64,000 bases of DNA, taken from positions 89,400 through 153,399 of the IMG/VR virus record IMGVR_UViG_3300023179_000016, one strand, 5' to 3'. The position numbers and the translations under genes are program-made. The stretch's first letter is position 1. The number at the start of each line of letters is the position of its first letter. The DNA comes from a virus. The notes beneath the pieces were generated by a model. The model ran no database searches and had not been told where the DNA came from. It was given only the letters and a program-made list of their open reading frames with translations. This document shows, in pieces, positions 1-60,182 of this stretch.

Positions 1-1
1 C

Positions 2-42311: not shown

Positions 42312-42767
42312 ATGGATCAAAAAGAACTTAAATTAGAAGAGTATGTAGATCAAAGGCGCTGGTTGCTAAACAATGGTTTAGTTACTGATGACGTCAAAAA
42401 TCAACTTTTTTTCTGTGGTTCTATTGTTCATAAGGATGTTCAGGCAGTAGAGTTGAGAATAGATGCTGAACAAAAGCATGTATACTACACTATATATGTT
42501 CAAAAAGATCTTCTTAAAAAGATCGATAAATACAATACTTTATCTAAGTCCGATAAACTATTTGACTTATGGCGCTTTAAGCGCCTTCTTAAAAAAGAGG
42601 GATCACTAGACTTTAATAAGGTCCTTAACGGATTTGTTAGGGATTTTTGTGGACCTAAGTGGAAGGTATCTGTAGAAATATTGGACTTCAATTCTTACGT
42701 AGATGGTATTGAGGTTGCCAATGGACCCGTTGAGTATAGTGAGACGGAAAATAAACCGTCTAACTAA
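42312..42767 (+). CDS. Hypothetical protein
   Basis: 151 aa; TGGTATAAT at 42282-42290 upstream. Confidence 0.6.
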   Translation: MDQKELKLEEYVDQRRWLLNNGLVTDDVKNQLFFCGSIVHKDVQAVELRIDAEQKHVYYTIYVQKDLLKKIDKYNTLSKSDKLFDLWRFKRLLKKEGSLDFNKVLNGFVRDFCGPKWKVSVEILDFNSYVDGIEVANGPVEYSETENKPSN

Positions 42768-43167
42768 TAATGAAGATCATAGACAGAGTCTATGGGTACA
42801 CTATTTAAACGGCAACTCTCCAGATTCGTTCTCTGAATATTTAATTAAATTAAAATTAGAAACTCAAATAAGCAATGATATTGAGCACCATATTCTTTAT
42901 GCTTTAAAGAAACCTGGCTACAATAGAATTCAGCTATTGTTAAACAACTTTTCCCAATATGAGCAGAGCATAATATGCCTATTAATGTTGGGTCTTACTG
43001 CGCATCAAATATCTATACTTAAAGGTATAAGTGAGGTGCGTATCAGGCAATCTTTGTCAACTATTAGGTATAATCCATATTGGGAAAAAGAATATGGCGT
43101 TAAAAAAGAATCTAACAGAAGACGAACGGTTCGGTCTAACAGAAGAAGAAATAAAGTTAGCGACTAA
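42721..43167 (+). CDS. Sigma-70 region-4-like helix-turn-helix protein
   Basis: LNNFSQYEQSIICLLMLGLTAHQISILKGISEVRIRQ matches the sigma r4 pattern LSxRExxVxxL...xTxxEIAxxLGISxxRVxQ; GAGG before ATG 42721. Confidence 0.6.
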   Translation: MDPLSIVRRKINRLTNNEDHRQSLWVHYLNGNSPDSFSEYLIKLKLETQISNDIEHHILYALKKPGYNRIQLLLNNFSQYEQSIICLLMLGLTAHQISILKGISEVRIRQSLSTIRYNPYWEKEYGVKKESNRRRTVRSNRRRNKVSD

Positions 43168-43702
43168 GTGGCTGAGAAAACATAAAACCGCTGGCGCATT
43201 AAAAGATTTAGACGCAGCAAAGTTATATGAACTTTATCTTTTGGGCGATTCACTTGCAAAAATATCTCAACAGTTCCCCCAATTCCCTATTGGGCAGATA
43301 GCTCTTACTGCTGCCCTTCGGGGATGGGCAAAAGATAGAGATAAAATGCTGCACACCTTACAAGATAGGGTTAGAGCAAAAGTTGTTAAATCTGTACTAG
43401 AACAGGTTGACTTTTTAACCGCCATGATGTCTGTTGCTAATGCTGAACACATGGAAGGCATGATTAAATACATTCAAAATCCCATTAACAACCCTAAGCC
43501 TCAACTTAGAATAGCAAACATTAAAGAATATAAAGATGTCGCTGAGACTCTTTATAAGATAGTTGCAGGAGCAACTAGCACTAAACCAGGTCAAGTTTCT
43601 CCTATGTTTTCGGCATTGACATCTCCAATAAAAAAAGAAATATCTCAAGAAGAGAAGCAAGAAGATGATATCAGTATATTAGACGCTGTAGATGAATCTT
43701 AA
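43094..43702 (+). CDS. Probable terminase small subunit
   Basis: HTH-like N-terminal half, helical body, TAATG-coupled to TerL. Confidence 0.55.
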   Translation: MALKKNLTEDERFGLTEEEIKLATKWLRKHKTAGALKDLDAAKLYELYLLGDSLAKISQQFPQFPIGQIALTAALRGWAKDRDKMLHTLQDRVRAKVVKSVLEQVDFLTAMMSVANAEHMEGMIKYIQNPINNPKPQLRIANIKEYKDVAETLYKIVAGATSTKPGQVSPMFSALTSPIKKEISQEEKQEDDISILDAVDES

Positions 43703-45633
43703 TGACCAATAAACGACCTAAAAATAGCATAGAAAAACAAAAACGGCTTTTATTAAAAAAATGCCAGACGCGCGCTGAAGTAAAGGCGTGGATTAAATAC
43801 TTTTTAAATTTAGATTTACCTGATACCAGAGTTTCTAGATATGCTACAACTACGCCATTAGATATCGTATGGGAAATGTATAAGATCTGCGTCCTAGACG
43901 ATAACCCAGAAAATATACAAGAATTATTATATACTGGCAGCAGGGGAAGCGGTAAGACTTTAGGCGTAGCAATAGCAGAATTCATGATTATGCTTCATGA
44001 TCAAAGAGATATTGCCCATGTCGGCGCAATAATGCAGCAGGCAGCTCGAGCCTATGAATACATACAAAGTTTCTGCATGTCTCCTAAGGTCAAATTGATC
44101 ATCGACCCTGCAAATGCGAAAGATGACAGCAAGATACTTCAAAAAAGCACGATGTCAAAGAGTATCTTTAATATCAATAGTAACGTATCTACTATAGAAA
44201 TATTGCCGACTACTTTAAAAGCGCTCAACGGCGTTCACTGTCAATTAGTTTCATGCGACGAATTAGATACACTGAGCGGCGAAGGTCTTAGAGCAATTAA
44301 AGAAGTATCCGGCATGTTGGATACTAAAAAAGGTAAAAAGCCACTGAGAGTTGGCATTTCTACTCGTAAGACTAAGTATGGTCTTATGAATTCGATGATA
44401 GAAAATGCTGAAAAAGAGGGTAGGCATGTAAGATATTGGACCGCTCTAGAATTCACAGAACGCTGTCCAGACACTAGAAGTGGTACTATGCCGACACCGC
44501 TATGGTTGAACCAAGATACCGGCGAATCCTTATTGACAGAGGATTACGAAAAACTATCTAAAAACAAACAACAAGGGTTTGTATTAGAGAGCGTCGGTAT
44601 GTACGACAAATGCCGTGGGTGTCCTGCTGCTGTATTTTGTAGAGGAGATGCTAAACTACAAACCTCAAATAGTCAAATGTTAAAGACTATAACAGAGCAC
44701 ATACAAAAAATAAAGTCAGAAGGCATCGATTGGGCTGCTTCCCAGCTATATAACTTAAAACCTTCTACAGAAGGACTAGTATTTACAGAATTTGAAGAGA
44801 GAATTCACGTTAAAGACTGGAATCAAATGTGGCATATTCTGGTTGGCAAGGAATTTCCCGGTCAATGCACGCACGATATTTTTGTAAAAAAAATCCATGA
44901 GATGAAGGTGCCTGTGTATGCTGGGTTAGACTGGGGCTTCACTAATCCAAACACGGTGGTATATTTTGCTGTAGATAAAAGAGATAATATCTATGTGTTG
45001 AAAACAGATGCAATGACGCATTTAAGCCAACCGGCATGGATACATCACTGTAAGACAAAATATCATACCGCGTATAGGTGCCAACTGTATTTTCCTGATT
45101 CTGCGGATCAGGGCGCGATACAGGAGATGCAGAAATCTGGTTTGCCGGTATCTAATTCACCAAAGGGAGAAATCAATGCCGGTATACAGGTTATAAAAAG
45201 ATTCTTACGCATACCTGGCACTAGTGAAACTAAACTATTTGTTGCAAAAGAGACTAATTCATTTTTGATAAATGAATTTAGTTTATATCATTTTAAGACC
45301 AATGCTGCCGGTGAAATAACCGATACCCCTGAAGGTGAAAATGACCACTCGCTAGATGCGCTTAGGTATGCATTAACACAATTATTTGGAAAAACAAATA
45401 TAATATTAGGTGGATCAGGGCTAGATTTAGATGTTTCTGAAGGCCTTATTGACAATCAAGGTAACTTTTTTAGAACACCTAATGCTATGGAATTTGCTGG
45501 AAGCAAGGGCTTATCCTTAAACATCAACGAAGAAGACGCTTCTAAATTAGGCAAAATAGGTACCCAAAAAGAATTAGATGATAATTCTGATGACGAGGAT
45601 GGCGGGGCAGGTTCATTTTTATGGACTTTTTAA
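43702..45633 (+). CDS. Terminase large subunit
   Basis: GSRGSGKT, VSCDELD, GIST, AGLDWGFTNP, DHSLDALRY; Cys-rich insertion between the domains. Confidence 0.92.
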   Translation: MTNKRPKNSIEKQKRLLLKKCQTRAEVKAWIKYFLNLDLPDTRVSRYATTTPLDIVWEMYKICVLDDNPENIQELLYTGSRGSGKTLGVAIAEFMIMLHDQRDIAHVGAIMQQAARAYEYIQSFCMSPKVKLIIDPANAKDDSKILQKSTMSKSIFNINSNVSTIEILPTTLKALNGVHCQLVSCDELDTLSGEGLRAIKEVSGMLDTKKGKKPLRVGISTRKTKYGLMNSMIENAEKEGRHVRYWTALEFTERCPDTRSGTMPTPLWLNQDTGESLLTEDYEKLSKNKQQGFVLESVGMYDKCRGCPAAVFCRGDAKLQTSNSQMLKTITEHIQKIKSEGIDWAASQLYNLKPSTEGLVFTEFEERIHVKDWNQMWHILVGKEFPGQCTHDIFVKKIHEMKVPVYAGLDWGFTNPNTVVYFAVDKRDNIYVLKTDAMTHLSQPAWIHHCKTKYHTAYRCQLYFPDSADQGAIQEMQKSGLPVSNSPKGEINAGIQVIKRFLRIPGTSETKLFVAKETNSFLINEFSLYHFKTNAAGEITDTPEGENDHSLDALRYALTQLFGKTNIILGGSGLDLDVSEGLIDNQGNFFRTPNAMEFAGSKGLSLNINEEDASKLGKIGTQKELDDNSDDEDGGAGSFLWTF

Positions 45634-45682
45634 GTAAGTCAATGATAAAATTGGTATAATATAAAGATTAAGGATTACTTAA

Positions 45683-47662
45683 ATGGCGTTCTGGGATTCA
45701 TGGTTCAAAAAACAAATTCAAGAAGAAATCCAAGACCTATTGAAGGCGGATGGCATCGTTCCAAACGAGACAGGGCCCGCTCCAATTAGAGGATCTTATA
45801 CCGCCGATGCATTACCCGATTCTCCAGAAGCGCACGACGCATCTAATCAAATAGGCCGTAAGGCAATAGTCGACGATCCCTACTTTGAAAATCTAACCCA
45901 TCAAATAAATGTTAAGCATAAGCTATCTAGACTTAGTAATAGAATGCTTAAAGAGGTCTCTGTTAGAGATTGGCTTGTATCTTCAATAATACAATGTCGC
46001 GTAGACACTTTATTGAGATTTTCTAGACCAGAGCATAAAAGATTCGAGATGGGGTTTCGTTTAATAAAAAAGGAAAAATCGTCTGAATATTCAAAAGAAG
46101 AACTAGAAGAGATTTCCGCTCTAGAAGACTTTATATATCATTGCGGGCGCAAAGAAGGCACTCCGGCGAATGAGCGAATGCTATTTGGAGAATTTCTAAA
46201 ATTAGTTGTTAGAGATGCTCTTACATTTGGGCATGTTGCAGTAGAAAAAGTTAAAACTAGGGGTGGCGGCCTACATAGATTTCGTCCTCTTCCGGCAGAA
46301 TCTGTCTATCTGATAAATAAGAGACTGTCGAAAGAACAGGTGGCCGAACAAGAAAAAAATGCTCAAACTGTGTTTGGTAAGCCACTAAGCAACAACGACC
46401 CTAAAAAGGATCAAAAAGTCAACAAAGTAGACATTGATTATTATAAATATATTCAGATGTCTTATAACATGCAGCCCTTGGCTCATTTTGGCGATGAAGA
46501 CCTAATCTTTAAATTATTTAATCCGCAAAATTTTGCCGACTCAAATGGTTATTGCTATTCTCCATTAGAATTAACTATTATTAATATAACAAACCATCTA
46601 AATGTTGAGAATTATAATGCTAATTTCTTTACGCATGGTTATGCCGCTAGAGGCGTCCTGCACCTTAAAGGAACAGTTACTCAATCGCAATTAATGAACT
46701 TTAGAAGGCAGTTTTATAATAGCATCTCTGGTCAACAGCATGCTTGGAGAACACCTATTGTAGCTGGATTGGATGATGTACAGTGGGTACCCATGTCCGG
46801 ATCTTCCAAGGAAATGGAATATATAAATTTTAATAACCATTTAATGAGAATAATCTGTGCGCAATTTGCCATAGATCCGGTTGAGATAGGATTAGATTAT
46901 CTAGTTAGCGCTACTGGCAGAGCGCCAATGCAACAAGCTAACAATGAATATAAGATAGCTTACTCTAGAGAGCGCGGCCTATATCCAATATTGATGTTCG
47001 TAGAGGACATGATCAATGGAGATCTACTTCCAGCAATAGATAAAAGTTTAGCAGACAAATATAGATTTGTATTTACTGGCTACACTGATGAAACTTCACA
47101 ATCTGAAGTTGCTCAGATGCAGGCAGAAATGTCTATCTTTAAGTCTATGAACGATCTGCTGATCCAGTCGCAGAAAGAGAAAATAAATACACCTGCTGCA
47201 GACTTACCGCTTAACCAAGCTTTTTGGGCTCTAGTCGAGAAAAACTATACTAGAGGTGAAATAAGAGAGATCTTCTTTAAAGATAAAGGCGCCTCTGAAA
47301 GAAGAGAACTCCAATATATACCTGGAGATGCGGCCTTTATGTCTTGGCAGCAAACTATACTTGCTCTTGATCAATCTAGAGAGCAAAAGAAAATGGCCGA
47401 ACAGCAACAAGAAGCTCAACAGGCTCAAATGCAGCACGAAAAAGAACAGAAAGAAATGGAAAATAAGCATGCAGAGGCCGCACACGGCAGAGAAGAAGAA
47501 AAACATGCCATGGAGATGGAGCAGATGAAAGCTGAAGCTGCAGCTAATGCCGTAAAAGCCGGATCCTTGCGCTCTTCTGCTCAGGCATTTGGTGCCTCTA
47601 AGGCTATGAATATAGGTGGCACTATGATTGCCAACCCCATAAATAAACTACCAGAAGAATAA
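45683..47662 (+). CDS. Portal protein
   Basis: GYCYSPLE, FFTHG..RGVL, WRTPIV, KEMEY...ICAQFAIDPVEIG portal motifs; TGGTATAAT at 45652-45660. Confidence 0.9.
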   Translation: MAFWDSWFKKQIQEEIQDLLKADGIVPNETGPAPIRGSYTADALPDSPEAHDASNQIGRKAIVDDPYFENLTHQINVKHKLSRLSNRMLKEVSVRDWLVSSIIQCRVDTLLRFSRPEHKRFEMGFRLIKKEKSSEYSKEELEEISALEDFIYHCGRKEGTPANERMLFGEFLKLVVRDALTFGHVAVEKVKTRGGGLHRFRPLPAESVYLINKRLSKEQVAEQEKNAQTVFGKPLSNNDPKKDQKVNKVDIDYYKYIQMSYNMQPLAHFGDEDLIFKLFNPQNFADSNGYCYSPLELTIINITNHLNVENYNANFFTHGYAARGVLHLKGTVTQSQLMNFRRQFYNSISGQQHAWRTPIVAGLDDVQWVPMSGSSKEMEYINFNNHLMRIICAQFAIDPVEIGLDYLVSATGRAPMQQANNEYKIAYSRERGLYPILMFVEDMINGDLLPAIDKSLADKYRFVFTGYTDETSQSEVAQMQAEMSIFKSMNDLLIQSQKEKINTPAADLPLNQAFWALVEKNYTRGEIREIFFKDKGASERRELQYIPGDAAFMSWQQTILALDQSREQKKMAEQQQEAQQAQMQHEKEQKEMENKHAEAAHGREEEKHAMEMEQMKAEAAANAVKAGSLRSSAQAFGASKAMNIGGTMIANPINKLPEE

Positions 47663-47664
47663 AC

Positions 47665-47701
47665 TATCGCATTTCAATGCGATAATCTAATTTAGTATAA
47701 T
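47665..47701 (+). promoter_or_regulatory. 8-bp hairpin after portal, followed by -10 box AGTATAAT
   Basis: TATCGCAT-ttca-ATGCGATA (47665-47684); AGTATAAT 47694-47701. Confidence 0.5.
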
Positions 47702-47747
47702 CTATAAAATTATTGCCAACAATCAATTGGCTTAAGAGGATCACTAA

Positions 47748-48521
47748 ATGGCATTGATTATTCTTGAAGGATTAGATCGCACTGGCAAATCAACAGTGGC
47801 AAGATATTACGAAAGTCTTGGATATCATTTAATCCACATGTCGGCTCCTTCTAAAGGCACAACAGCAGATCAATATCTTCAAGATATCACTGATCTATTG
47901 TCCTCTGCTTCCACAAGAGACATAGTATTAGATAGATCTCATTATGGCGAATTAATATGGTCATCGGTCTATGGTAGATCTTCACTTTTGACAGAAGAAG
48001 ATATAGAATCTCTAGCGGAGATAGAAACAGCCGTAGGCGTCAAAAGAATACTTATGGTTGATCCAAACGTTGAAGCACATTGGAATAGATGTGTTGAAAA
48101 TAATGAACCGTTGACTAAAGCCCAATTCATCAAGGCAAGATCCCTTTATTATCAAATGGCCCAAAAGTTTAACTTTGAAAGTCAAAATCTGCCGCAATTC
48201 TTAAGACTAAATCCGGATGCAGAATCTATTTCTAAAATAGACAGCGGCGACAACGATATTGTTACAACAGATGAGACAAAAAAATCTAAAACACCAGAAC
48301 AATTAAAACTAGAAAAGGCAAACGCAATAAACGATATTCTGTCTAAAAGAATTTTAAAGCAAAAAGGCGACACATACGAAGATTTAGAGCGCGATATTAG
48401 AAACTTTTTAAATGCAAAATTAGGTAAACTTTTTGGCGACACGTCTGACTTAGGTTTTACAAGTGAAGAAATTAAATTTTACAAGACAATGTATAAAAAG
48501 GCAACTAAAAAAGGGGAATGA
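47748..48521 (+). CDS. P-loop (d)NMP kinase, thymidylate-kinase-like
   Basis: IILEGLDRTGKST, VLDRSHYGE. Confidence 0.8.
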   Translation: MALIILEGLDRTGKSTVARYYESLGYHLIHMSAPSKGTTADQYLQDITDLLSSASTRDIVLDRSHYGELIWSSVYGRSSLLTEEDIESLAEIETAVGVKRILMVDPNVEAHWNRCVENNEPLTKAQFIKARSLYYQMAQKFNFESQNLPQFLRLNPDAESISKIDSGDNDIVTTDETKKSKTPEQLKLEKANAINDILSKRILKQKGDTYEDLERDIRNFLNAKLGKLFGDTSDLGFTSEEIKFYKTMYKKATKKGE

Positions 48522-49093
48522 AGATGAAGGGATTTAAACTGCACGAACAACCGTCCAAAAAAACTCAAATTAAACAACTTGAGACAGAATTAAAAAATTC
48601 TCAAGTTGCCAATAGAATGTCTCAACTAATGATTCAACAGTTGGTCAACAGCGTAAAATCTATTGGAGATGATTTAAATACTGCTGTGAGTAGATTGTAC
48701 GAGTTGCAGTATAAATACGATGCATTGAGACAGTATTTAAATGCAGACGTAAATAACTTAAATGATATTGCAAATCAACTTCGCCTAAAAGATTTTCAAG
48801 AGGCAGCAGAGAGAGCAGATCTTCAAGAAGAATTGCAGACGGTAGAGACTGCCACAGAAGATAGCACTGTAGTACTGACCTCTACTGCCAAAGATGAAAA
48901 TAACGTCGATAAGGGCATATTTAGATCCAGAGTTAAACTGTCTGAGTCAGGTTCTCCAGATCTCATCAGCAAACTCTTAGGTAAAAAAGTTGGCGATAAG
49001 GTCTTAGTTAAGTTAAATAACTTAGATCATACCGTAGAACTTCTTTCTGTAAAGAATGGGCCAACTAAAGCTGATCCGGAGACTACACACTAA
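48518..49093 (+). CDS. Coiled-coil protein with GreA/GreB-C-terminal-like (FKBP-fold) domain
   Basis: STVVL...SPDLISKLLGKKVGDKVLVKL...VELLSV resembles the GreA C-domain SPLxxALxGKxxGDxVxV...EILxV. Confidence 0.5.
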   Translation: MKMKGFKLHEQPSKKTQIKQLETELKNSQVANRMSQLMIQQLVNSVKSIGDDLNTAVSRLYELQYKYDALRQYLNADVNNLNDIANQLRLKDFQEAAERADLQEELQTVETATEDSTVVLTSTAKDENNVDKGIFRSRVKLSESGSPDLISKLLGKKVGDKVLVKLNNLDHTVELLSVKNGPTKADPETTH

Positions 49094-49491
49094 TGAAGGG
49101 TTGTAAAATGGATTCTAGGTGCCCTAGAAATCTTAAAGAGACACCAGATGACTGGTGTCCTCTTGCTGTTTTAAGGCTAAAAGCTATAAGAAATGCTGGC
49201 AGGGAACTAACAGAATCTGAAGAAGCTAAACTACCAGGTTGTCCGTGGGCTATTGATCATCAATTGGCCAATTATTGTTTTTTTAAATATATTAACGAAT
49301 TTTCTAATGGTAAACCTGCTACGGATATAGAGTTAGCAGCCCTGCTAAACATTTCTCCTGAATCCGTTAAAAGAATAGAAAGATCTGGTTTAAATAAATT
49401 AAAATACAGCAATTCGTTCTCGAATATGAAGACGCAAGACGGTCCTATAGTGGAAGAAAAAGACGACAGTACCTATAAAGTACATAAGTAA
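49093..49491 (+). CDS. Cys-rich protein with sigma-70 region 4.2-like HTH
   Basis: ATDIELAALLNISPESVKRIERSGLNKLK versus RpoD TLEEVGxxFxVTRERIRQIEAKALRKLR; N-terminal CP..WCP..GCPW..YCF cluster. Confidence 0.65.
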   Translation: MKGCKMDSRCPRNLKETPDDWCPLAVLRLKAIRNAGRELTESEEAKLPGCPWAIDHQLANYCFFKYINEFSNGKPATDIELAALLNISPESVKRIERSGLNKLKYSNSFSNMKTQDGPIVEEKDDSTYKVHK

Positions 49492-49508
49492 TTGATTGTA
49501 TTAAATAT

Positions 49509-49763
49509 ATGAAATGTTACTATTGGTTGATAAATAATCAAACTTTAAGGGCATTGAAGTGCTCAACAGCCTACGATATTGAAGATAAATTAAATCACAA
49601 TTTCTTCAAAAAACAAAAAGAAGCCTATATAACTGGCGGTCATTCAATAGATAATCACTATTATCTTCATGTAGATAATATAGACCAAAAAACTTTATAT
49701 AATTTTAAGTCTTATTTAAGAAGATATTATTCGTTGAACCCTAAGCTAATACTAGAAAAATAA
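49509..49763 (+). CDS. Hypothetical protein
   Basis: 84-aa AT-rich ORF filling the gap; weak start signals. Confidence 0.4.
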   Translation: MKCYYWLINNQTLRALKCSTAYDIEDKLNHNFFKKQKEAYITGGHSIDNHYYLHVDNIDQKTLYNFKSYLRRYYSLNPKLILEK

Positions 49764-49818
49764 GCATTACATATATTTAGTCAATATAATGTAGACACGT
49801 GGTAAAATACCTAAAGGT

Positions 49819-51513
49819 ATGGCTAAAAAACCTTTAGAAATAGATATGATAGCTGGTTCTCAATTGAGAGACACTCAAGGTGAAATGTTGAGTGTTGAGG
49901 GAGCTGATATAAGCGATTTGCAGGCCGGTAAAGGTCGATTAAACGATAATCACGGAAAAGGCTTCTTTAATTCGATTGGTACAGTAACAGACGCAAAAAA
50001 AATATTTAAAAAAGAAGACTGCGAGAACGACCGCCACTCCTACTATTGGGATAAGGTGAAGGCACCCTTTATATACGTTAGAGGTTATCTCTTCGACGAC
50101 GAAGATCATCCCAACGCAAGAGCCGCTGCAGCAATATTAAGAAACATCCATAAAAATGATTCGCCTCTTCAACTAAAAGCTTCTGTAGAGGGTGGAGTGT
50201 TAGCAAGAGGCATATCTGACAATACATTGCTTGCAAAAACAAAGATACATTCAGTCGCCCTAACATTCACTCCAGCCAATAAAAATACTCTTGTAGAGCC
50301 TGTCAGTCTAGATAAAACTTCTTTCAATGAAGAAGAGGACACCAGAATAATAAAATCTGTGCTTCATCTAGCAAAAACTAATGTTCCTTCTTTTAGACAC
50401 ATAGTAAGAGATGCTGCAGCTCAAAAGATAGAAGATAACTTAAACAAGATATCTGATTTATCTAAAAAACTTGGATTGCCGCAAAATTTTTCTAATATAT
50501 CCAAGCAGTCCATCTTGGAAAACGCAATAGAAGACAAAATAAAGCACAATGTTGCATTGATTCATTCTATTATCACTGGATCAGAAGATTTAGACAAGGG
50601 TTTAAAAGAAACTGGATTAGCTGCTGCACTTAGTGCAGGTTTAATGGCCTCTACTCCACAACAGGCAGAAGCAAAAAGATATAATCCACCTGTCGCTAAA
50701 AGACCCATTAGTGCGGTTGTAAATAAAAAACCGAAATTAGGTTCAATGGTCATAAGAAATAATGATCACGCTCCTCATATTGCTATGTATGAAAAAGTTA
50801 AACAAACCAATCCATTTTTGGGAATTACAGGTTTTATCGAATCTTCTGGCGGACTTCAGCACGATGGACATATAACCTTAACAGCTAAAGATATGAATTA
50901 TGGTCATACTGCTGGAGGAATATGGGCGATGTTACCAAATCATGCGGCCTTTACTATCTCAAAAGATAAACAGTTAGCCGCCAAATATCCGCAATTAGCT
51001 AAATTAGCAAAAACAGTAAAAAATAAAAATTTCAAACATCACATATTCACCAACACATTTAATAAAGACCCTCAAGCTGCGGCAGATTTTGCAATATCTG
51101 CCTATAATTATTTGCGCACTAAATTTAAAAGTTACGATGCCATGGCTGCAGCATGGAATATCGGAATCAGCGGAACAATGAAATTGCTTAAAAATGGCAA
51201 AAATGCATTAGCAAATTTAGGATATGTTCAAAAATTTAGAAAAGGGTATCGTGAATATTTGAATCAGAGAAGACTTGCGTCTGATCGGGCAGATAATATG
51301 TCAAAAGCTTTGATGGCTGGATATGGTGGCGGATCTGCACCGACATCAAGAGTGGGTGGCGCGGTATTGCAATCCGAGTGGTCACCTAAGTCATTGAAAT
51401 ATATAACATGTGACAGATGCGGAAAAGAACAAGTTCACGCAAAATATCAAGTTAAGTGTAGACATTGTAATGATAATTTTAGTTTAAAAAAATTAAATGA
51501 AATTTTAAGTTAA
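49819..51513 (+). CDS. Prohead (capsid maturation) protease with SLT-like domain, capsid N-arm-like segment and C-terminal zinc ribbon
   Basis: RDTQGE, LNDNH, ASVEG, VALTFTPAN protease motifs; IESSGG..GIWAM..AAAWNIG SLT-like motifs; KALMAGYGG; CDRC..CRHC. Confidence 0.8.
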   Translation: MAKKPLEIDMIAGSQLRDTQGEMLSVEGADISDLQAGKGRLNDNHGKGFFNSIGTVTDAKKIFKKEDCENDRHSYYWDKVKAPFIYVRGYLFDDEDHPNARAAAAILRNIHKNDSPLQLKASVEGGVLARGISDNTLLAKTKIHSVALTFTPANKNTLVEPVSLDKTSFNEEEDTRIIKSVLHLAKTNVPSFRHIVRDAAAQKIEDNLNKISDLSKKLGLPQNFSNISKQSILENAIEDKIKHNVALIHSIITGSEDLDKGLKETGLAAALSAGLMASTPQQAEAKRYNPPVAKRPISAVVNKKPKLGSMVIRNNDHAPHIAMYEKVKQTNPFLGITGFIESSGGLQHDGHITLTAKDMNYGHTAGGIWAMLPNHAAFTISKDKQLAAKYPQLAKLAKTVKNKNFKHHIFTNTFNKDPQAAADFAISAYNYLRTKFKSYDAMAAAWNIGISGTMKLLKNGKNALANLGYVQKFRKGYREYLNQRRLASDRADNMSKALMAGYGGGSAPTSRVGGAVLQSEWSPKSLKYITCDRCGKEQVHAKYQVKCRHCNDNFSLKKLNEILS

Positions 51514-52014: not shown

Positions 52015-52044
52015 CAAATTAAACAACCTTATTAGGAGATCGAT

Positions 52045-52860
52045 ATGGACGAACAGCTAACAAAGAGTCTGACTGATCTGATCGATGAAACTCTCAGTGA
52101 ACTAGAAGAGCTTCGCAAATCAAAGATGTCAGCTGCTGAAATTAAGTTAGAGGGCCCTGGCGAAGGAATCGCAGGTAAACCTTCCGACGGTAAACTTGAT
52201 GCTAAAAAGGCAGACGACGAAGACGAAGAAGAGTCTGAAGACGAAGATGAAGAGGCTGAAAAGGCTGAAGCAGAAAAATCTGAAGACGAAGGCCACGATG
52301 AAGATGATCCTGCAGATAAGCCTTCAACTGGTCGTAAATTAAAAGCTATCATGGAATCCAAGAAGTCTGAAGACGCAGATGATGCCGATGAAGACGAAGA
52401 AGAAGACGAAGTTGAAAAGTCTTGGAAGATGGACAAGAAAGAAAAGAAAGACGACGACAAAAAGGAACCCCATAAGGACGACCCAAAGCATGAAGAAAAA
52501 GAGAAGAAAATTGCGAAAAAACTTCTCGAAATGCATAAGTCTACCGAAGAGGTTGGCTCTCTAATGAAGAGCTATGTCGAAGAGCGGATTAAACCGTTCG
52601 AAGAAAAACTCGAGACCATCCTCGAGCTCGTCAATTCAATTGCTGAGCAGCCAGTTGCCCCAAAGGGTGTTACCGTCAAGACGGCGCCACTCCTCAAGTC
52701 CTCTACTGCTGAGTATGGTGAAGTACTTTCAAAAGCCGAAATCGCAAACAAGCTTTTTGAACTTAAAAAGTCTGGCACTCGCGTTGATTCCTTAGATATC
52801 GCTAAGGTTGAAATGGGTCAAGACCTTGTTAACATTGTTAAAAAATACGATATTTCGTAA
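52045..52860 (+). CDS. Capsid scaffolding protein
   Basis: Highly acidic/charged, immediately before MCP, many xxKS/KA motifs. Confidence 0.75.
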   Translation: MDEQLTKSLTDLIDETLSELEELRKSKMSAAEIKLEGPGEGIAGKPSDGKLDAKKADDEDEEESEDEDEEAEKAEAEKSEDEGHDEDDPADKPSTGRKLKAIMESKKSEDADDADEDEEEDEVEKSWKMDKKEKKDDDKKEPHKDDPKHEEKEKKIAKKLLEMHKSTEEVGSLMKSYVEERIKPFEEKLETILELVNSIAEQPVAPKGVTVKTAPLLKSSTAEYGEVLSKAEIANKLFELKKSGTRVDSLDIAKVEMGQDLVNIVKKYDIS

Positions 52861-52878
52861 TCAAAGGAGAGCACGAAA

Positions 52879-54330
52879 ATGATGAACGATGCAGTTAATC
52901 AAATTTTACAGGGACTTGACCAGGGTCTGGTATCTCAGGCCGACGTCGAAGCCCTAAATAAGGCAATCACTGCCGGTTATGGTGGCGCAGGTAAACCTAC
53001 CGATCTAACCTACGGCGGTGTTCTTCAGGCTGAATCTCTCGAGGCAACCCTCAAGAGCGTCACCTTCGACATGAAGAATCTAAAAATGTGGCCAGCAATA
53101 TCAGTCGATAAGGCCTACAATCTCTTCGAGCAGTACAATCGCTTAATCAGCTACGGTTCTGATTCTGCGCCTTACCTCGGTGAAGGTGGAGCTCCTATCG
53201 AAGAAGATTCGACATATGTTCGTGACGGACAGAAGATCGTGTTCTTCGGAACTCGTCGTAAGGTTTCGCACCAGATGACGCTGGTCCGTACCACGGTCGG
53301 TGATGTCGTCGCTCAACAGGCAAAAGAAGGTACTATGCATCTTCTGAAAAACGTTGAACGCGAAATGTACTGGGGTCATGCCCACTTCATTGGTCGTCTC
53401 GACGGCGCTAACGACGGCAGCGATGCTGCTCTCCCAGCCAACAGCATCGCCATGAGCGGCCTTCTAAAGCAGCTCAAAAAAGGCGATACTGATGTTCTTC
53501 AGCGCTCTGGCGACTTTGAAGGATACGGTGATGCTCAGTCCATCGTTCAAGATCTCGGCGGAGCAGTTATTGCTCAAGACGATCTAGAGCGTCTTGCAGT
53601 TATCGCGCTTGAAAACTTCGGTTCTCCAAGCGAACTGCATATCGAGCCTGCTGCCCTGTCGTCATTCGTCAAGCAGTTCTATCCTCAGTTCCGTTCTGCT
53701 CCAGGTCTCTCAAATGAGACTGTCGGTTACAGCGTGAACAAGATGACTACCACTGCGGGCGTCATCGACTTCAAACCTAACCTCTTCCTCCGTCCTCGTG
53801 CAGGCGCTCGCGCACTCGCTGTCAGTGCACTCGCTCCTTCGCTCGGATCTCTCGGTGTGGCAACTGCTGCAACGGGTTCTGGTTCTGCTCTCGGTGCAGG
53901 CGTTTACCAAGTTAAGGTTACGCTCGTCAACGACGCAGGCGAATCAATTCCACTTCAGGCTGCTGCAGTTACTCTTACTGCGGGTCAGAAGATTCAGCTC
54001 ACTGTTACTAACATGCCCGCTGGTGTTAAGCACATGAAAGCTTATATCTCTGCACCAGGCGGCGCAGTTGGAACCGAAAAATTCGCAGGCAATCTTGCAA
54101 ACGCTGGCAATACTACCTATGTACTTGCTGGTCGTAAGCAGGCTGGTCTCGGCGAAGCATTCCTCCTCGACATGAGCGCTGAATGCATGAAGTTCAAACA
54201 ACTTGCACCTCTCAGCAAGATTAACTTCGCAATCGTCACCACTGCACTTGAATTTGCGATCGTCATGTACGGAGCTCTCTTCGTATATACTCCTCGCTTC
54301 AACTGTGTGATGGAAAACGTTGGCAAGTAA
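52879..54330 (+). CDS. Major capsid protein, Herelleviridae (SPO1/Twort)-like
   Basis: KAITAGYG N-arm, LQAESLE..LK, EQYNR, LAPLSKINFA..FAIVMYGAL..P; strong high-expression codon bias; terminator downstream. Confidence 0.88.
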   Translation: MMNDAVNQILQGLDQGLVSQADVEALNKAITAGYGGAGKPTDLTYGGVLQAESLEATLKSVTFDMKNLKMWPAISVDKAYNLFEQYNRLISYGSDSAPYLGEGGAPIEEDSTYVRDGQKIVFFGTRRKVSHQMTLVRTTVGDVVAQQAKEGTMHLLKNVEREMYWGHAHFIGRLDGANDGSDAALPANSIAMSGLLKQLKKGDTDVLQRSGDFEGYGDAQSIVQDLGGAVIAQDDLERLAVIALENFGSPSELHIEPAALSSFVKQFYPQFRSAPGLSNETVGYSVNKMTTTAGVIDFKPNLFLRPRAGARALAVSALAPSLGSLGVATAATGSGSALGAGVYQVKVTLVNDAGESIPLQAAAVTLTAGQKIQLTVTNMPAGVKHMKAYISAPGGAVGTEKFAGNLANAGNTTYVLAGRKQAGLGEAFLLDMSAECMKFKQLAPLSKINFAIVTTALEFAIVMYGALFVYTPRFNCVMENVGK

Positions 54331-54356
54331 TAATTGAATTAAATTCAGTTTTCTAG

Positions 54357-54387
54357 AAGGCCGATCTCGAAAGAGATCGGCCTTTTT
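54357..54387 (+). terminator. Rho-independent terminator after MCP
   Basis: AAGGCCGATCTC-gaaa-GAGATCGGCCTT then TTT. Confidence 0.92.
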
Positions 54388-54581
54388 AGTTTGTGAATTA
54401 TGTTGTTTATTTGCCATATTAAGCACATGGTATAATTTTGTAATCAAACGATTCTTCATTGGGATAACTCTAATACTTTATTTATATTATTTACGGCAAT
54501 AAAATTTAATTCTCAACAGAGAATATTGCATTTAATTTTTTTTAATATAGATTGTCGTAAATTAAGCGAAAGAGATAAGGC

Positions 54582-55283
54582 ATGAAAAAAGCGATTTATG
54601 TGTGCGTTGAGGGCGTTGAAGGTGTCGGAAAAACTACACAAGTAGAGTTATTAACAATCAAATTGAAAGAGCTTGGCTTTAAGGTTTTAAAAACTAAAGA
54701 ACCAGGCACACCTCATCTTCCAATTACCATGAAGATGCGCGAATTAATGTTAAGTAATGAGTTCGACAATCAATTGACAAAAAATTCTAGGGAACTCATC
54801 AGTCAAGCAATAAGATCTATTCACATCGAAAAATTAATAATTCCCTCCATGTTTGAATATGACTTTATAATTCAAGATAGAGGTGTATTGAGCGGTTATT
54901 CATATGGCGTATCGTGTGGAAATGATATAGAATATCTTAAACTATTAACTAAAAACTCTATAACTAATGCTCTCAACGCTGGAGACAATGATTTTAATCA
55001 AAGGGTAGAATATATACCAGAATCTATTTATGATTTAGTAATACTTCTAGATGGAGACGTAGAAGATTCTCTCAATAAGGCTATCTCTTCAAAGAATGAA
55101 TTTGAGGCAGGCGACGCCATGGAGTCTCGCGGATTGCAATTCATAAATCGTGTTGCTGATACTATGAAAGAGTATTCATTGATGTTTAATGTTAATAGGA
55201 TTTTAGTGAACAACAAAACTGCTCCTGAAGTTAATCAGGAAATAATGTACGCTGTATTAGGTAAATATAATGAAAAAAAATAA
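54582..55283 (+). CDS. tmk: Thymidylate kinase
   Basis: VEGVEGVGKTTQ, TKEPG, IQDRG..S.YSYG. Confidence 0.88.
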   Translation: MKKAIYVCVEGVEGVGKTTQVELLTIKLKELGFKVLKTKEPGTPHLPITMKMRELMLSNEFDNQLTKNSRELISQAIRSIHIEKLIIPSMFEYDFIIQDRGVLSGYSYGVSCGNDIEYLKLLTKNSITNALNAGDNDFNQRVEYIPESIYDLVILLDGDVEDSLNKAISSKNEFEAGDAMESRGLQFINRVADTMKEYSLMFNVNRILVNNKTAPEVNQEIMYAVLGKYNEKK

Positions 55284-56064
55284 ACCGAAGGTTCTAATTT
55301 ATGACATTGAAACTGCTCCTATATTAAGTTATGTATGGGGTCTTTGGGACAACAACGTTGCCCTGAATCAAATCGCATCTGATTGGCATATATTAAGTTG
55401 GAGCGCTAAATGGTTAGGTGATCCTGCATCTAAAGTGATGTATATGGATCAAAGAAATTCTAAAAATATAGAAGACGATAGAGATATTTTAAAACATATC
55501 TGGTCTCTATTAGATGAAGCTGATATAGTGATCACCCAAAATGGAAAAAGTTTTGATCAAAAAAAATTAAATGCCAGATTTATAATGCATGGTTTTCAAC
55601 CACCAAGCAGTTATAAGCACATCGACACGAAACTTCTTGCACAAAAGCATTTTGGTTTTACTTCATTAAAATTAGAATACATGACTGGCAAGTTGTGTAC
55701 AAAATATAAAAAACTGAAACACGCTAAGTATCCAGGATTCGAGATGTGGCGCGAGTGCATGTCCGGTAATATTAGCGCTTGGAAAGAAATGGAACGCTAT
55801 AATAAGCGAGATGTGTTAGCTCTGGAAGAGCTATACACCAAATTAATACCTTGGGACAATAGCATTAATTTTGCTCTATATGACGAAAGTACAGCCAGCA
55901 ATTGTAAGTGCGGTGGATCGTTTGTTAAAAATGGTTTTTATTATACTACAGTTGGTAAATATCAAAGATATAAGTGTAAAAAATGCGGTTCTGAGTCTAG
56001 AGATAGACAGAATCTTCTATCAGAAGAAAAGAAGCAGAGCTTAAAGATGGGCACTGTTCGCTGA
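55270..56064 (+). CDS. RNase H-like (DEDD) exonuclease with C-terminal zinc ribbon
   Basis: YDIET, NGKSFD, HIDT, YNKRDV..LEELY; CKCG..CKKCG. Confidence 0.82.
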   Translation: MKKNKPKVLIYDIETAPILSYVWGLWDNNVALNQIASDWHILSWSAKWLGDPASKVMYMDQRNSKNIEDDRDILKHIWSLLDEADIVITQNGKSFDQKKLNARFIMHGFQPPSSYKHIDTKLLAQKHFGFTSLKLEYMTGKLCTKYKKLKHAKYPGFEMWRECMSGNISAWKEMERYNKRDVLALEELYTKLIPWDNSINFALYDESTASNCKCGGSFVKNGFYYTTVGKYQRYKCKKCGSESRDRQNLLSEEKKQSLKMGTVR

Positions 56065-56065
56065 T

Positions 56066-56626
56066 ATGCACTTTAAAGAGATAGAGACTAAATATTCTGC
56101 CGATGGTATCGACATGAAAGACTTTGTCGATATTGTGGATTCTCTTAATCCAGAATGGATTATGGTTAGTTCGTACGATGATTATTTTATAAATGACAAA
56201 GATGAGTTTATAAGATATAGATATCATGACACGATGGGCGAATTAACAATTAAAAGAAAAACAACAGACACTAACAATAACAATAGGATAGAGGTTAACT
56301 TACCCACAAACGGCAAGTCCTCTAAAATAGTTGAGACATTTGTAAGTTTATTGGGCTATAAACTTAATTTTAGTATCTTTAAGACATGTAAAATAGGTCT
56401 TCTTGAAAAGGCTGTTTTGGTGTATTATGTCGTCTATGATAGGAATCTCAACGAACTTAGACGTTTTATAGAAGTAGAAGCTAGAGAAGACTATAAGTGG
56501 TCTTCTGAACAAGAAGCCTGGGACGAAGTCCTTAAATATGAAGCGATGCTGGCCCCTTTGGGAATAACAGCCAAAAATAGACTTAAAAAGTCATTATTTG
56601 AGCTTTTTAAGAATACCCTAAAGTAA
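56066..56626 (+). CDS. CYTH-superfamily triphosphatase / class IV cyclase-like protein
   Basis: N-terminal EIETKY (ExExK), DDYF, RYR, LTIK, RIEVN, FIEVE. Confidence 0.8.
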   Translation: MHFKEIETKYSADGIDMKDFVDIVDSLNPEWIMVSSYDDYFINDKDEFIRYRYHDTMGELTIKRKTTDTNNNNRIEVNLPTNGKSSKIVETFVSLLGYKLNFSIFKTCKIGLLEKAVLVYYVVYDRNLNELRRFIEVEAREDYKWSSEQEAWDEVLKYEAMLAPLGITAKNRLKKSLFELFKNTLK

Positions 56627-56697
56627 GTTTTCCCGAAAAACCTATTCGGTTTTATCGCCTTGCGCTGTATAATGCTTATATAGTGTAAGGAGATAAT

Positions 56698-57006
56698 ATG
56701 CGCACTTCCAATCTAGCCAACCAAGCCATTAGACAGGCAGAAGTCGGCCATGTCTGGGTAGAACAGCTCACAAACGCAGCTGGTACCCTCGAAATCCAAA
56801 AATACGCCACATTTAGAGTTAGAGCTGCTGCAGCAGTTACCGTCACAATAGATGGTGTCTTAGCTGCCACAATGACATCTGGAGAAATAATTCTATTTAA
56901 TTCGGGAAGCGGTATTAATGATGCTGCTGGCAATCTTGTACCCACTGTAACTGTAGTTATTACCGGTAATTGCTATCTTCAAGTTGCTCGCGATAAAGAT
57001 AGATAA
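56698..57006 (+). CDS. Small putative virion protein
   Basis: Beta-rich Ala/Thr/Val protein; TGTATAAT 56666-56673 and SD AAGGAG. Confidence 0.5.
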   Translation: MRTSNLANQAIRQAEVGHVWVEQLTNAAGTLEIQKYATFRVRAAAAVTVTIDGVLAATMTSGEIILFNSGSGINDAAGNLVPTVTVVITGNCYLQVARDKDR

Positions 57007-57024
57007 CATAATAGGCATAAGCGC

Positions 57025-58257
57025 ATGAAAACATCTAGTTTTAAAAAAATTCTATTAAGAAAAGTCGAAGGTGATCTTAAACTAACTACTCTTATATCTT
57101 CTTGCACTGGAGAGTTTTTAACTAACAAGATAATAGAGTCATTAGAAAAGATGGCTGCACCTGGAAAAAATACAGGTAGAAATGCCAATTCTGCGATTAC
57201 AAATTTTGCACAAAGACTTTCCAATAGAGATGTTGAAATGATGAGAGATGCCTTAGGACATCATGTTTCTGCTCATAAAGCAGAATTAAAAGCCGGAAAT
57301 AGACAAGCAGCGGATGCACATTTAAATAAGATAATCCCATTAATGCATTTAATGGCTAGAACTGCAGCACATTCTGGTGGAAAACTAGCTTTAGATTATG
57401 TTCCGCTAGAGCCATGGGAAACCAATTATACGGGTTTAGAGAGAAGACCAGAAACTGGAAAATTAAAAGAAGGAACTAAGGGATTAAGGAGACGACCCAG
57501 TAAAACCGATAGAATCTCAAACCCTAGAGGGGTTCCAGATTTTAGATATTTAGAGATGAAACCGCACCCAGGTCATTCAGATGTCAATACTTCTCCGCAT
57601 AAAGAAACCGCCTATCCGTTTGAGGAAATTCAGTTGGGTTCGCCCAGTGCTGTTGATTCTAAACAGGCATATCTACCTATTTCAAATATTCAAGCTACAG
57701 GTACGTTTAAACCTCATCCATTTGACGATCATCCTATACATAAATTAGCAGATTTAGAACAAGATAAAATTTCTAACGATACTATGAATAATTTTGGTAG
57801 CGCATTAGATAACTGGGTAAACCATGATTCATCTAAAAAATGGGGTGAATCCATTAAAAATCTATACGCGTCTAATCCAGAGTCTTATAAAAACAGAGGT
57901 AAACAAAAACCATCACATCATTTTGAAGGTATGAGTATTCTAGATCATCCGAAAGAGGTGGCAGAATATATATCTCAGAACCCAACATCTTCTGTTGAGT
58001 CAACTAAACTTAAAGAACCTAAATCAACTAGTTCAATTTTAACAGATGATCATATAAATGATCTACCGCCAGAATTGCAAAATCTAGGTAGACAGTTGCT
58101 TCAGGGACAAACTACCTCATCACGCATTACGCCATCACAGACCGCAATGTCCGATGAAGACATTGAAAAAGCATTTATAGGTGGAACACCAGAAGATCAG
58201 AAAAGACTTTGGCCACAATTTAAGCAGATTCAAGAAAAGAAACATGGAGCAAGATAA
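57025..58257 (+). CDS. Hypothetical protein, possible internal head protein
   Basis: 410 aa, His-rich, in the head module; LEKM motif near the N-terminus. Confidence 0.5.
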   Translation: MKTSSFKKILLRKVEGDLKLTTLISSCTGEFLTNKIIESLEKMAAPGKNTGRNANSAITNFAQRLSNRDVEMMRDALGHHVSAHKAELKAGNRQAADAHLNKIIPLMHLMARTAAHSGGKLALDYVPLEPWETNYTGLERRPETGKLKEGTKGLRRRPSKTDRISNPRGVPDFRYLEMKPHPGHSDVNTSPHKETAYPFEEIQLGSPSAVDSKQAYLPISNIQATGTFKPHPFDDHPIHKLADLEQDKISNDTMNNFGSALDNWVNHDSSKKWGESIKNLYASNPESYKNRGKQKPSHHFEGMSILDHPKEVAEYISQNPTSSVESTKLKEPKSTSSILTDDHINDLPPELQNLGRQLLQGQTTSSRITPSQTAMSDEDIEKAFIGGTPEDQKRLWPQFKQIQEKKHGAR

Positions 58258-60182
58258 TGCCAGGTTTTGTTAGGTCTAAAAAAGACGAAGTTAAATGGAA
58301 TAAGGCTAAAAAATCAGTAAGTGAATCTAAGTCAAAAAAAGAAGAATCTTTTTCTGATAGAGATTGGGCTTTAGTTAATCATATTTACCATAATATGAGT
58401 AAATCTAATTCTATTGAGCTGTCTGAAATAGACAATATAGTGAATCATTTATATAATACTAAAAAGTTATTGAAAGCTAGAGATTACGAAGACAAAGACT
58501 ATGACCCAGAAGATATAAGTGGACTATCAATAAGAGACGAATCGGAAGATCCATATGCAGATGACTTATCTTCTTATGACAACGATGAATTATTAAATGA
58601 AGATGAAAATATAGAACCTGAAGACGATGAATCGCGAGATGTATATGGACAGATGACTGGAAGACCATCTGAATCAGAAAATGAAGAAGAACCCCAACAG
58701 GAAATTAAACCGGCAAAAAATATAGATCAAATCAAGTCGTCACCGGAATCTTCAATAGAGTCTCAAACTATCAACATGGACCCTGAAGACTACGAGAAAC
58801 TGCCATCAGAAATCAAAAAAAAATATAAATTAGCTGTTTCTGAAGAAAAACCAAAAATAATACCTAAATCCACCAGCGAAACTCAAATTGAACCGACTTC
58901 AAGATCGGCTGTTATTACAAGAAAACAAGGCCAACCTTCATCTAACCCATCCTTAGCATCTTTAAAGGATGAACCCTCGTTTTCCGAAAAAGAAGAAATG
59001 TTTGAACCAACGGTAGAAGAACTTAACGCTCTAAGAGAACACACTAGACCATGGGAACAGAGAGCCAGAGACACAATAAAATTACAAGCTGATCCCAGAA
59101 AAAATCCTGTTTTGGCTAAGGAAGGTGTTTTATTAGAAGCTACGCGTAACGCCCATAAGGATAGAAATCAAGCATATAGCGAATTGACTAATTCCGCTGC
59201 ATATAAAAACGCGGATCCAATTGCTCAAATGGAATTAGATGAAAAGTTTCATAGAGATTGGATAAGCGGCAATCCAGATCATACTGCAAATGCAATTAGA
59301 GCTCATGCTGATGCACATCAAATAGGCGATGAAAAGAAAAAAATATTTGATGCTCATAAAGAAGCTCAAATAAAAACTATCTTAGAGGGCGGAGCTATGC
59401 CAGAAGAAACATTTTCCACCGAAGCTGGCTTACAGCATGCAGGCGGCGCTAAGAGCGAAGAAGGCACGGCAGGATCCATGGTATCTGATCCATATTCTTC
59501 TTTTGCGATGGGCAACAAACAATTCGTTAAAGAATATGCAAAAAATTATACAGATAAAAATAAAAAAGCCTCTTCAACTGAAGATTTAGAAAACTATGAT
59601 ATAGGTGATAAAAAAGATATAAATAGAATATTAGGACCAGCTGCCGCAAAAAGTCCTTTAGTAGAAGACTTTTTTAAAAAATACAATAGACTAATAGCGA
59701 TAAATGCAAAAAATGCAATAAAGGCACTAGGTTTGCAAGAAAACCATCCTAACGTGGATATAGGATTACTTCATGAGGCGGGCATGCATGGTTTAATGCA
59801 AGCAGTTAATTCTTATGATCCCTCTAAAGGTGCTCAATTTAAAACATGGGCCTCTAGAGTGATAAAAGGTCTTCAGATGACTGCCTTAAATAATCAACAT
59901 GAAATACCACAGAGTATTAGAAGAGCAGCCAAAGATTTCAATAAAAAAAGAAGTGCGCAGCCTCAAATGTCCGCACCCACTCTCACACCTACTTCCGCAT
60001 CGACCACAACTGCGACTCCTACGTCCACTCCAGCATCCGCAAGTACCCCATCGGTTCAAAAACCAGCGGCGCCTCATGTAGTCATATCAGAATCCAAACA
60101 TCCAAATGCTCCCAAAATGGCAGAAGCAATAAAGAGAATAGACGCTCAAAGAAATGTCATAACAAGAAAGAGATCTGAATAG
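58257..60182 (+). CDS. Acidic multi-domain head-associated protein containing a FliA-like sigma region-2 domain
   Basis: LHEAGMHGLMQAVNSYDPSKGAQFKTWASRVIKG...IPQSIRRAAKD aligns with the sigma28 pattern LLQAGxIGLLxAVERYDxxxGxxFxTYAxxRIRG...VPRSVRR; no region 4 follows. Confidence 0.75.
   Translation: MPGFVRSKKDEVKWNKAKKSVSESKSKKEESFSDRDWALVNHIYHNMSKSNSIELSEIDNIVNHLYNTKKLLKARDYEDKDYDPEDISGLSIRDESEDPYADDLSSYDNDELLNEDENIEPEDDESRDVYGQMTGRPSESENEEEPQQEIKPAKNIDQIKSSPESSIESQTINMDPEDYEKLPSEIKKKYKLAVSEEKPKIIPKSTSETQIEPTSRSAVITRKQGQPSSNPSLASLKDEPSFSEKEEMFEPTVEELNALREHTRPWEQRARDTIKLQADPRKNPVLAKEGVLLEATRNAHKDRNQAYSELTNSAAYKNADPIAQMELDEKFHRDWISGNPDHTANAIRAHADAHQIGDEKKKIFDAHKEAQIKTILEGGAMPEETFSTEAGLQHAGGAKSEEGTAGSMVSDPYSSFAMGNKQFVKEYAKNYTDKNKKASSTEDLENYDIGDKKDINRILGPAAAKSPLVEDFFKKYNRLIAINAKNAIKALGLQENHPNVDIGLLHEAGMHGLMQAVNSYDPSKGAQFKTWASRVIKGLQMTALNNQHEIPQSIRRAAKDFNKKRSAQPQMSAPTLTPTSASTTTATPTSTPASASTPSVQKPAAPHVVISESKHPNAPKMAEAIKRIDAQRNVITRKRSE

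Follow-up and report, generated by a model that had tools for sequence, protein, structure and literature searches.

The last 64 kb of IMG/VR virus record IMGVR_UViG_3300023179_000016 (positions 89,400 to 153,399 of a 153,399-bp record that is about 91% complete; these 64,000 nucleotides (nt) are called the window here) encode a protein, P0001, that belongs to the sigma-70 family and is of the FliA/WhiG type, keeping domain 2 and one helix, the first, of domain 3 but lacking regions 3.2 to 4. The window's genome and two complete relatives also carry GTATAAT boxes, which are real -10-only promoters conserved in all three. A FliA-derived phage factor reduced to sigma domain 2, with matching -10-only promoters, is new; it is a variation on a theme played by gp55 of phage T4 and Gp34 of phage SPO1. 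The domain identities, the lack of any other sigma factor, the conservation and the promoter motif are direct observations. Given a sigma-2-only factor, no intact sigma factor or T7-type polymerase, and conserved -10-only promoters, redirection of the host RNA polymerase in the manner of gp55 is the best reading: we hold it modestly probable that P0001 directs that enzyme to the clade's T-n-G-TATAAT promoters.

The sigma domain of P0001 is recognised by models of several kinds. Pfam Sigma70_r2 matches residues 508-544 (27.3 bits, cut-off 24), the NCBIfam model TIGR02479 (FliA_WhiG) matches residues 495-567 with an expect value (E) of 5.9e-11, the NCBIfam WhiG model aligns to residues 469-565, and phmmer pairs the protein with E. 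coli FliA (6pmi_F) at E 1.1e-5. A profile of 37 family sequences, A1, finds sigma factors in the PDB at E 4.8e-8 over about 100 positions, which comprise regions 2.1-2.4 and an 'IPxxVR' helix of region 3.0; the same 37 homologues show little or no variation at the DNA-facing positions of region 2.3-2.4. The initial annotation had placed a FliA-like region 2 without region 4 at about 59670-59940, and these matches bear it out, coordinates included. Structure prediction agrees: an AlphaFold2 model of residues 245-641 has a predicted local distance difference test score (pLDDT) of 69, with 75-89 in the sigma part, and in an exhaustive structural search with this model sigma-2 domains rank first (range Z 6.6-8.1). 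The foremost match is sigB (VIA-align Z 8.1, root-mean-square deviation (rmsd) 2.5 over 92 residues), followed by RpoS regions 1.2 and 2, pro-sigmaK, sigma70, WhiG, sigma28 and T4 gp55. Foldseek against the PDB returned sigma factors only, all with E of at least 0.02.

What follows the sigma domain is equally consistent across the family. P0001 has no Sigma70_r4 match and none of the 37 aligned homologues has a region 4; past residue 567 all of them continue with a low-complexity linker of Pro, Thr and Ala and then a single basic helix. From region 3 the first helix alone ('IPxxVR', region 3.0) aligns, there is no match to Pfam Sigma70_r3, and P0001 reaches 42.5 bits against a cut-off of 189.6 bits for the full-length FliA_WhiG model. 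From the N-terminus onwards the protein consists of a variable N-terminus, an acidic disordered stretch, a region-1.2-like helix, a helical insertion, sigma domain 2 with the 3.0 helix, the Pro/Thr/Ala linker and the basic C-terminal helix (Table 1). Model ranges 1..303 were aligned with RpoS regions 1.2 and 2 and with sigma70 fragments. The first and last aligned residues alone suggest that the predicted 'TRPWEQRAR' helix is placed like sigma region 1.2, and the end residues of the alignments likewise suggest that the insertion would sit at the place of the sigma70 non-conserved region; the structural search gave generic helical-hairpin matches only for this insertion (Z 5.5-7), nothing specific. 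About one third of the homologues, P0001 included, begin with an extra N-terminal module ('MPxF..DE.KW.KAK...YWALVN.IY.KM'; window 58257-58400), and the rest start later. Acidity and low complexity also mark a separate protein of 370 residues (window 61104-62216), as they do the N-terminal half of P0001; it has a DUF5661 domain at its N-terminus, then eight QEQTP repeats, and a coiled coil at its C-terminus.

At least 159 homologues (45-63% identity, 500-640 residues) make up the family; the phage contigs that encode them reach 204 kb. Scanning IMG/VR with the family alignment gave 24 loci; scanning it with the P0001 sequence alone gave no relatives. A megablast of 18.5 kb found nothing similar at the DNA level among GenBank phages, and tblastn with full-length P0001 returned no match. 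The closest isolate by large terminase is Myxococcus phage Mx1 (27% identity), and the major capsid protein shares 32-34% identity with its counterparts in SPO1-like and related phages. Genes for replication and recombination occupy the window between 24 and 42 kb; they encode a helicase, a methylase, a GroEL-like chaperonin of phage (27826-29565; Cpn60_TCP1, E 2e-44), SbcCD-like genes, an exonuclease-fused DNA polymerase III alpha and RecA. From 42 kb on, genes for the large terminase, portal, prohead protease and major capsid protein are interspersed with kinase-like and exonuclease-subunit genes.

Within the 153-kb genome the sole Pfam match to Sigma70_r2 is P0001 and the sole match to Sigma70_r4 is P0002, a small protein discussed below. 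No T7-type RNA polymerase was found in the genome, nor any DxDGD-type motif in its long open reading frames, although the T7 control gave no signal anywhere. Pfam found no additional sigma region 2 or 4 in three relatives rated 100% complete. The earlier statement that the window has no intact sigma factor or phage RNA polymerase thus holds for the whole 153-kb genome (for the polymerase, the T7 type), and its sigma part, as judged by Pfam, for the three complete relatives as well.

The second half of the finding concerns the promoters. In the window alone, RGTATAAT is not above chance (11 seen, 8.6 expected); the copies lie 6-50 nt upstream of gene starts. The signal emerges from three genomes, the window's own and the two complete relatives (40, 44 and 49% GC), in which no 7-mer is more enriched than GTATAAT ahead of late-strand genes (those on the strand of the structural genes), with 9-11 occurrences where about 0.4-0.5 are expected. 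Between genes GTATAAT is found 10, 14 and 15 times, where shuffled DNA yields means of 1.4-2.1, a 5- to 10-fold excess. When 64 intergenic G-TATAAT sites are considered together, there is no upstream information except a T at -15, and the best -35 matches equal those of shuffles, so that the layout is a G at -13 and often a T at -15 (T-n-G-TATAAT). An ATG stands exactly 6 nt past the box at 3 of 19, 7 of 20 and 10 of 30 late-strand sites in the three genomes, with a few more at 7 nt; examples are window 25398-25415 and 33990-34006 and, in relatives G001 and G004, loci L047-L064. This fixed distance implies that the box is a working -10 element and that many of the mRNAs are leaderless. The initial annotation had counted about 20 promoter boxes with no evident -35; the missing -35 is confirmed and the enrichment extends to three genomes, whereas the count in the window comes down to about 10-13. 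Among the leaderless candidates, ATG 34004 is probably the start of the DNA polymerase III alpha gene, in place of TTG 33989.

What we infer beyond these observations is RNA polymerase binding, the promoter class that P0001 serves and any partnership. P0001 would bind the host core RNA polymerase and steer it to T-n-G-TATAAT promoters, its domain 2 binding the beta-prime clamp helices and reading and melting the -10 element, and its first domain 3 helix reading the bases just upstream of it. These promoters precede replication, packaging and structural genes and often start leaderless mRNAs; the mode of action would equal that of T4 gp55 and probably that of SPO1 gp34. Sigma28 reads position -13 (C-13; preprint 10.1101/2020.01.02.893370), the position that is conserved in the phage boxes and at which a conserved base is unusual for primary-sigma promoters.

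Several points weigh against this proposal. TATAAT is the canonical -10 consensus of the primary host sigma factors, so that P0001 might not be needed for the host holoenzyme to use these promoters. GTATAAT is somewhat enriched on the opposite strand too. The P0001 gene itself lies behind a GTATAAT promoter (the 56666 box), and P0001 can therefore be the sole starter of the class only if it enters the cell together with the DNA; this arrangement is compatible with virion delivery and equally with basal recognition by a host sigma factor. The sigma28 residues that read C-13/G-12 are R58, Q73 and R74 (preprint 10.1101/2020.01.02.893370); in the FliA alignment they are not kept in P0001, whose specificity is therefore unreadable from homology.

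There is, moreover, a second motif that could be the true target of P0001. CCGA-N3-TATA is found on the strand opposite the structural genes in a ratio of 19:0 to the other strand in the window's genome and of 9:1, 6:0, 4:1 and 3:0 in relatives G001-G004, and a reversed-pattern control has no strand bias. The 19 sites are on the genome's minus strand, one of them at window 24067-24077. It is a putative second conserved promoter class, strand-specific, and it has CCGA in common with the sigma28 -10 element GCCGATAA. These facts and the points above invite another explanation: the host primary sigma holoenzyme would use GTATAAT, and P0001 would either compete at the sigma-2 site and shut off host transcription or serve the CCGA-N3-TATA class. 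The canonical -10 sequence and the promoter of the P0001 gene fit the first part, and the strand bias in five genomes, the shared CCGA and the FliA-like character of P0001 fit the last. Promoters without a -35 and without TG at -15/-14 are usually weak for primary sigma factors, however, and the GTATAAT boxes have neither; a mere competitor would have no need of invariant DNA-facing residues in region 2.3-2.4; and in relatives with almost the same P0001 sigma-2 helices the CCGA motif becomes much scarcer, whereas GTATAAT keeps its strength across the three genomes tested. The CCGA motif is thus judged the less likely target, and we consider the explanation as a whole rather unlikely. With equal strength in genomes whose sigma-2 helices are near-identical, no -35 and a conserved -13, GTATAAT is favoured as the class that P0001 serves in gp55-like redirection.

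T4 late transcription uses a sigma-2-only factor, gp55, and a separate flap-binding co-activator, gp33, and to our knowledge sigma factors reduced to domain 2 have so far been known mainly from T4-like phages (gp55), perhaps also from SPO1 (Gp34). P0001 resembles gp55 in being a sigma protein reduced to domain 2, in a phage with -10-only promoters and no polymerase of its own, granting P0001 its presumed action at promoters. Its model aligns to gp55 (7d7d_F) with Z 6.6 over 98 residues, yet at 4% identity; P0001 matched no PHROG family at E <= 0.01 and tblastn gave no T4-like record. Unlike gp55, P0001 is FliA/WhiG-derived, three times longer, keeps the 3.0 helix, and adds the acidic disordered stretch, the helical insertion and the basic C-terminal helix. 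The promoters differ as well (T-n-G-TATAAT in place of T4 TATAAATA), no clamp (gp45-like) gene was recognised in the replication module, and no counterpart of gp33 came to light, though no sequence search was aimed at a homologue of it. The SPO1 late sigma factor Gp34 is small and is described as being without the domain that holds sigma-A region 4 (PMC13401047). By that description it shares with P0001 the lack of region 4, and the two phages belong to a related capsid lineage (32-34% identity). In tblastn with the P0001 sigma domain, by contrast, the hits were confined to sigma factors of other Bacillus phages (E 0.007-0.1), with SPO1 absent. Unlike the GTATAAT boxes, the late promoters of SPO1 include a -35-like element. 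By sequence the nearest of all are FliA and WhiG (sigma28), which give the best matches both for regions 2.1-2.4 and for the 'VPRSVRR'-like 3.0 helix; P0001 departs from them in having no regions 3.1-4.2, in not conserving the C-13/G-12 readers and in its long N-terminal extension.

P0001 is a third, independent and much larger domain-2-only form, clearly derived from a FliA/WhiG-type sigma and conserved in a large clade of uncultivated 150-200 kb phages. The simple -10-only promoter with leaderless mRNAs would make a clean system for studying a minimal sigma factor, the reading of -13 and region 4 acting in trans, and the family alignment and the promoter motif give an annotation handle for a phage group without a cultured member.

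Table 1. Positions of the features in the window
Feature	Position	Strand	Remarks
P0001, sigma-2-only factor, 641 aa	58257..60182	+	hidden Markov model (HMM), profile and structure evidence
P0001 conserved helix, residues 253-276, 'TRPWEQRAR'	59013..59084	+	invariant columns in A1; pLDDT 76-88
P0001 helical insertion between the 1.2-like helix and region 2.1, residues 284-376	59106..59384	+	pLDDT 85-94
P0001 sigma regions 2.1-2.4 and start of region 3.0, residues about 469-567	59661..59957	+	
P0001 conserved basic C-terminal helix, residues 618-640	60108..60176	+	where regions 3.2-4 would be
P0002, 132 aa: four conserved Cys, sigma-4.2-type helix-turn-helix (residues about 71-110), acidic/aromatic C-terminal tail	49093..49491	+	
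P0003, 191 aa: 60-residue helix, 27-residue helix, small FKBP-like domain (residues about 104-185)	48518..49093	+	
P0004, 154 aa: N-terminal 'EDxRQDLWVHYLSG' motif, C-terminal sigma-4/LuxR-type helix-turn-helix	42703..43167	+	start 42721 also possible
Probable small terminase subunit, 202 aa from ATG 43094	43094..43702	+	position only; no family match
Large terminase	43702-45633		directly after probable small terminase
Promoter box GGTATAAT	42283..42290	+	heads operon with P0004
Promoter box GGTATAAT	45653..45660	+	upstream of portal gene
Promoter box AGTATAAT	47694..47701	+	heads operon with P0003 and P0002
Promoter box TGTATAAT	56666..56673	+	heads operon with P0001
Further promoter boxes	5607, 25398, 33990, 38499, 43067, 54429	+	

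The initial annotation had also proposed two separate small proteins with region-4-like helix-turn-helix (HTH) domains. HTHs are indeed predicted in both, of sigma-4.2 type in P0002 and of sigma-4/LuxR type in P0004, with moderate support for the first and weak to moderate support for the second. Pfam Sigma70_r4 gives P0002 20.9 bits, under the cut-off of 24.1, and gives its homologue in relative G005 25.3 bits, over it. In hhalign P0002 aligns to three Bacillus-phage sigma factors (76% probability, P 2.3e-5), and a 70-sequence profile finds region 4.2 of SigA in the PDB at E 1.3e-4, in a list made up mostly of sigma factors with some LuxR/GerE HTHs. Ahead of the HTH are four cysteines (C10, C22, C50 and C62), all invariant in the close clade; across 70 wider relatives C10, C50 and C62 are invariant and C22 is present in at least 90%. 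Three of the four are directly followed by proline, and the four together are probably a metal site. In P0126, a homologue of 504 residues, an intein sits right after the third invariant cysteine (PGC|...HN|CSWAV), which marks the site as functionally important. The C-terminus holds a conserved acidic/aromatic 'DDDYKIYR' in the close clade (window 49450-49488) and a conserved 'GMP[IL]HRDG.K..L[FY]GLYS' in the remote relatives P0161 and P0185; such motifs may be partner-binding tails. One metagenomic protein, P0155 (647 residues), consists of seven tandem sigma-4-like HTH units. Relatives of P0002 were also considered as small terminases or sigma-2 fusions and rejected as such, Pfam being empty in ten longer relatives. 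Two gene contexts of relatives were uninformative, and the gene upstream of one remote relative is no P0003 homologue.

P0002 is the strongest candidate for a co-factor, encoded by a gene of its own, that binds the flap or DNA. Carried further, the idea would be a bipartite sigma factor in which P0001 (regions 1.2, 2 and 3.0) and the four-cysteine P0002 occupy core polymerase as two halves, with the metal or redox site or the tail of P0002 gating late transcription, and P0001 perhaps present in the capsid too, where it would prime the next infection. We think this improbable.

P0003 had been proposed as a Gre factor on account of a GreA-C-domain-like fold, and here the comparison turned out differently. 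Like GreA, GreB and Gfh1, it has N-terminal helices followed by an FKBP-like domain of the size of the Gre C-domain. An AlphaFold2 model (pLDDT 82) has helices at 14-73 and 78-104 with a turn at 74-77, however, and as modelled they do not pair into the symmetric, acid-tipped hairpin of Gre factors: the 'GDDLN' stretch (50-54), the proposed tip, falls in the middle of a helix. The best matches of the model are SlyD, trigger factor and FKBP (Z 9-10). Gre factors align by the C-domain only, with Z 8.0 for GreA (1grj; rmsd 2.8, 64 residues), 7.3 for GreB and 6.8 for Gfh1, and in no case were the N-terminal helices co-aligned. Since SlyD, trigger factor and FKBP outscore GreA, the fold fails to single out Gre factors. 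The Gre HMMs all stay under their cut-offs (PF01272 17.9 bits vs 26.9, TIGR01462 18.2 bits vs 139), and family profiles A2 and A6 (8 and 45 sequences) found no Gre factor among PDB sequences. P0003 is a predicted coiled-coil protein with an FKBP-like domain, and a chaperone-like or assembly role is more likely for it than that of a Gre factor.

P0004 stands at the terminase genes. A 36-sequence profile finds region 4 of sigma-H (3mzy) in the PDB at E 7.3e-4 and then LuxR/FixJ HTHs at E 0.04-0.45, and among the 36 family members Pfam gives weak matches to GerE (9/36), Sigma70_r4 (8/36) and Sigma70_r4_2 (7/36). Hhalign against phage sigma factors gave 21% probability (P 0.0011) and aligned the C-terminal HTH alone; a mini-sigma in which 'EDxRQDLWVHYL' would be the region 2.2 helix is therefore unsupported. 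Late activators of the RinA/ArpU/LtrC type in Gram-positive phages (PMC3152322) offer a comparison for its placement. P0004 resembles them in being small, in its predicted sigma-4-like HTH and in lying immediately upstream of terS and terL; no match to these families was found in Pfam or NCBIfam. P0004 may be a regulator of the sigma-4/LuxR type, placed like a late activator ahead of the terminase genes.

The most extensive proposal, that of the initial annotation, was a complete kit in which P0001 (sigma 2), P0002 and/or P0004 (sigma 4 on the beta flap) and P0003 (Gre-like, in the secondary channel) jointly reprogramme the host polymerase, with P0001 carried in the virion. Co-occurrence in relatives was looked for and found: 5/5 long relatives have all four genes, arranged in the same order. 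They are core genes of the clade, however, and their co-occurrence says little about a shared function. The sigma-4-type HTHs of P0002 and P0004, the overlap of the P0003 stop with the P0002 start and the weak but collinear alignment of several GreA models with P0003 all suit the kit, and virion delivery would solve the problem of P0001 lying behind its own promoter class. Set against this are the match of P0003 to SlyD and trigger factor, at least as good as that to GreA, its mid-helix tip and Gre-free profiles, and a P0002 family far wider than that of P0001 (179 clusters at 50% identity). The case for a Gre-like factor is poor, as is that for virion delivery, and the complete kit appears very improbable. 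From the notion of a host polymerase reprogrammed by independently encoded sigma modules, the sigma-2-only factor, the lack of an intact sigma and the -10-only promoters survive; a link of P0002 and P0004 to P0001 is a supposition, and the Gre assignment goes no further than a common FKBP-like fold.

A different role for the three smaller proteins, in head assembly and packaging, is possible though doubtful: P0003 would be an FKBP-like chaperone, and the HTH proteins would bind DNA for packaging or for control of the late operon. The gene order suits it (P0004 directly before the small and large terminase genes, P0003 and P0002 between portal and prohead protease), as do the chaperone-type FKBP domains that P0003 matches best and the GroEL-like chaperonin encoded by the phage. 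The HTH of P0002, on the other hand, fits sigma region 4.2 better than any other class, and the module also contains non-structural genes, two of them kinase-like (47748, 54582) and one for an exonuclease subunit (55270), which makes gene position weak evidence. One of the promoter boxes, GGTATAAT at 43067-43074, lies within the 3' end of the P0004 gene, 19 nt upstream of the probable small terminase ATG; it is spelled by the codons of a conserved 'RYN' and is present in relative G001 too.

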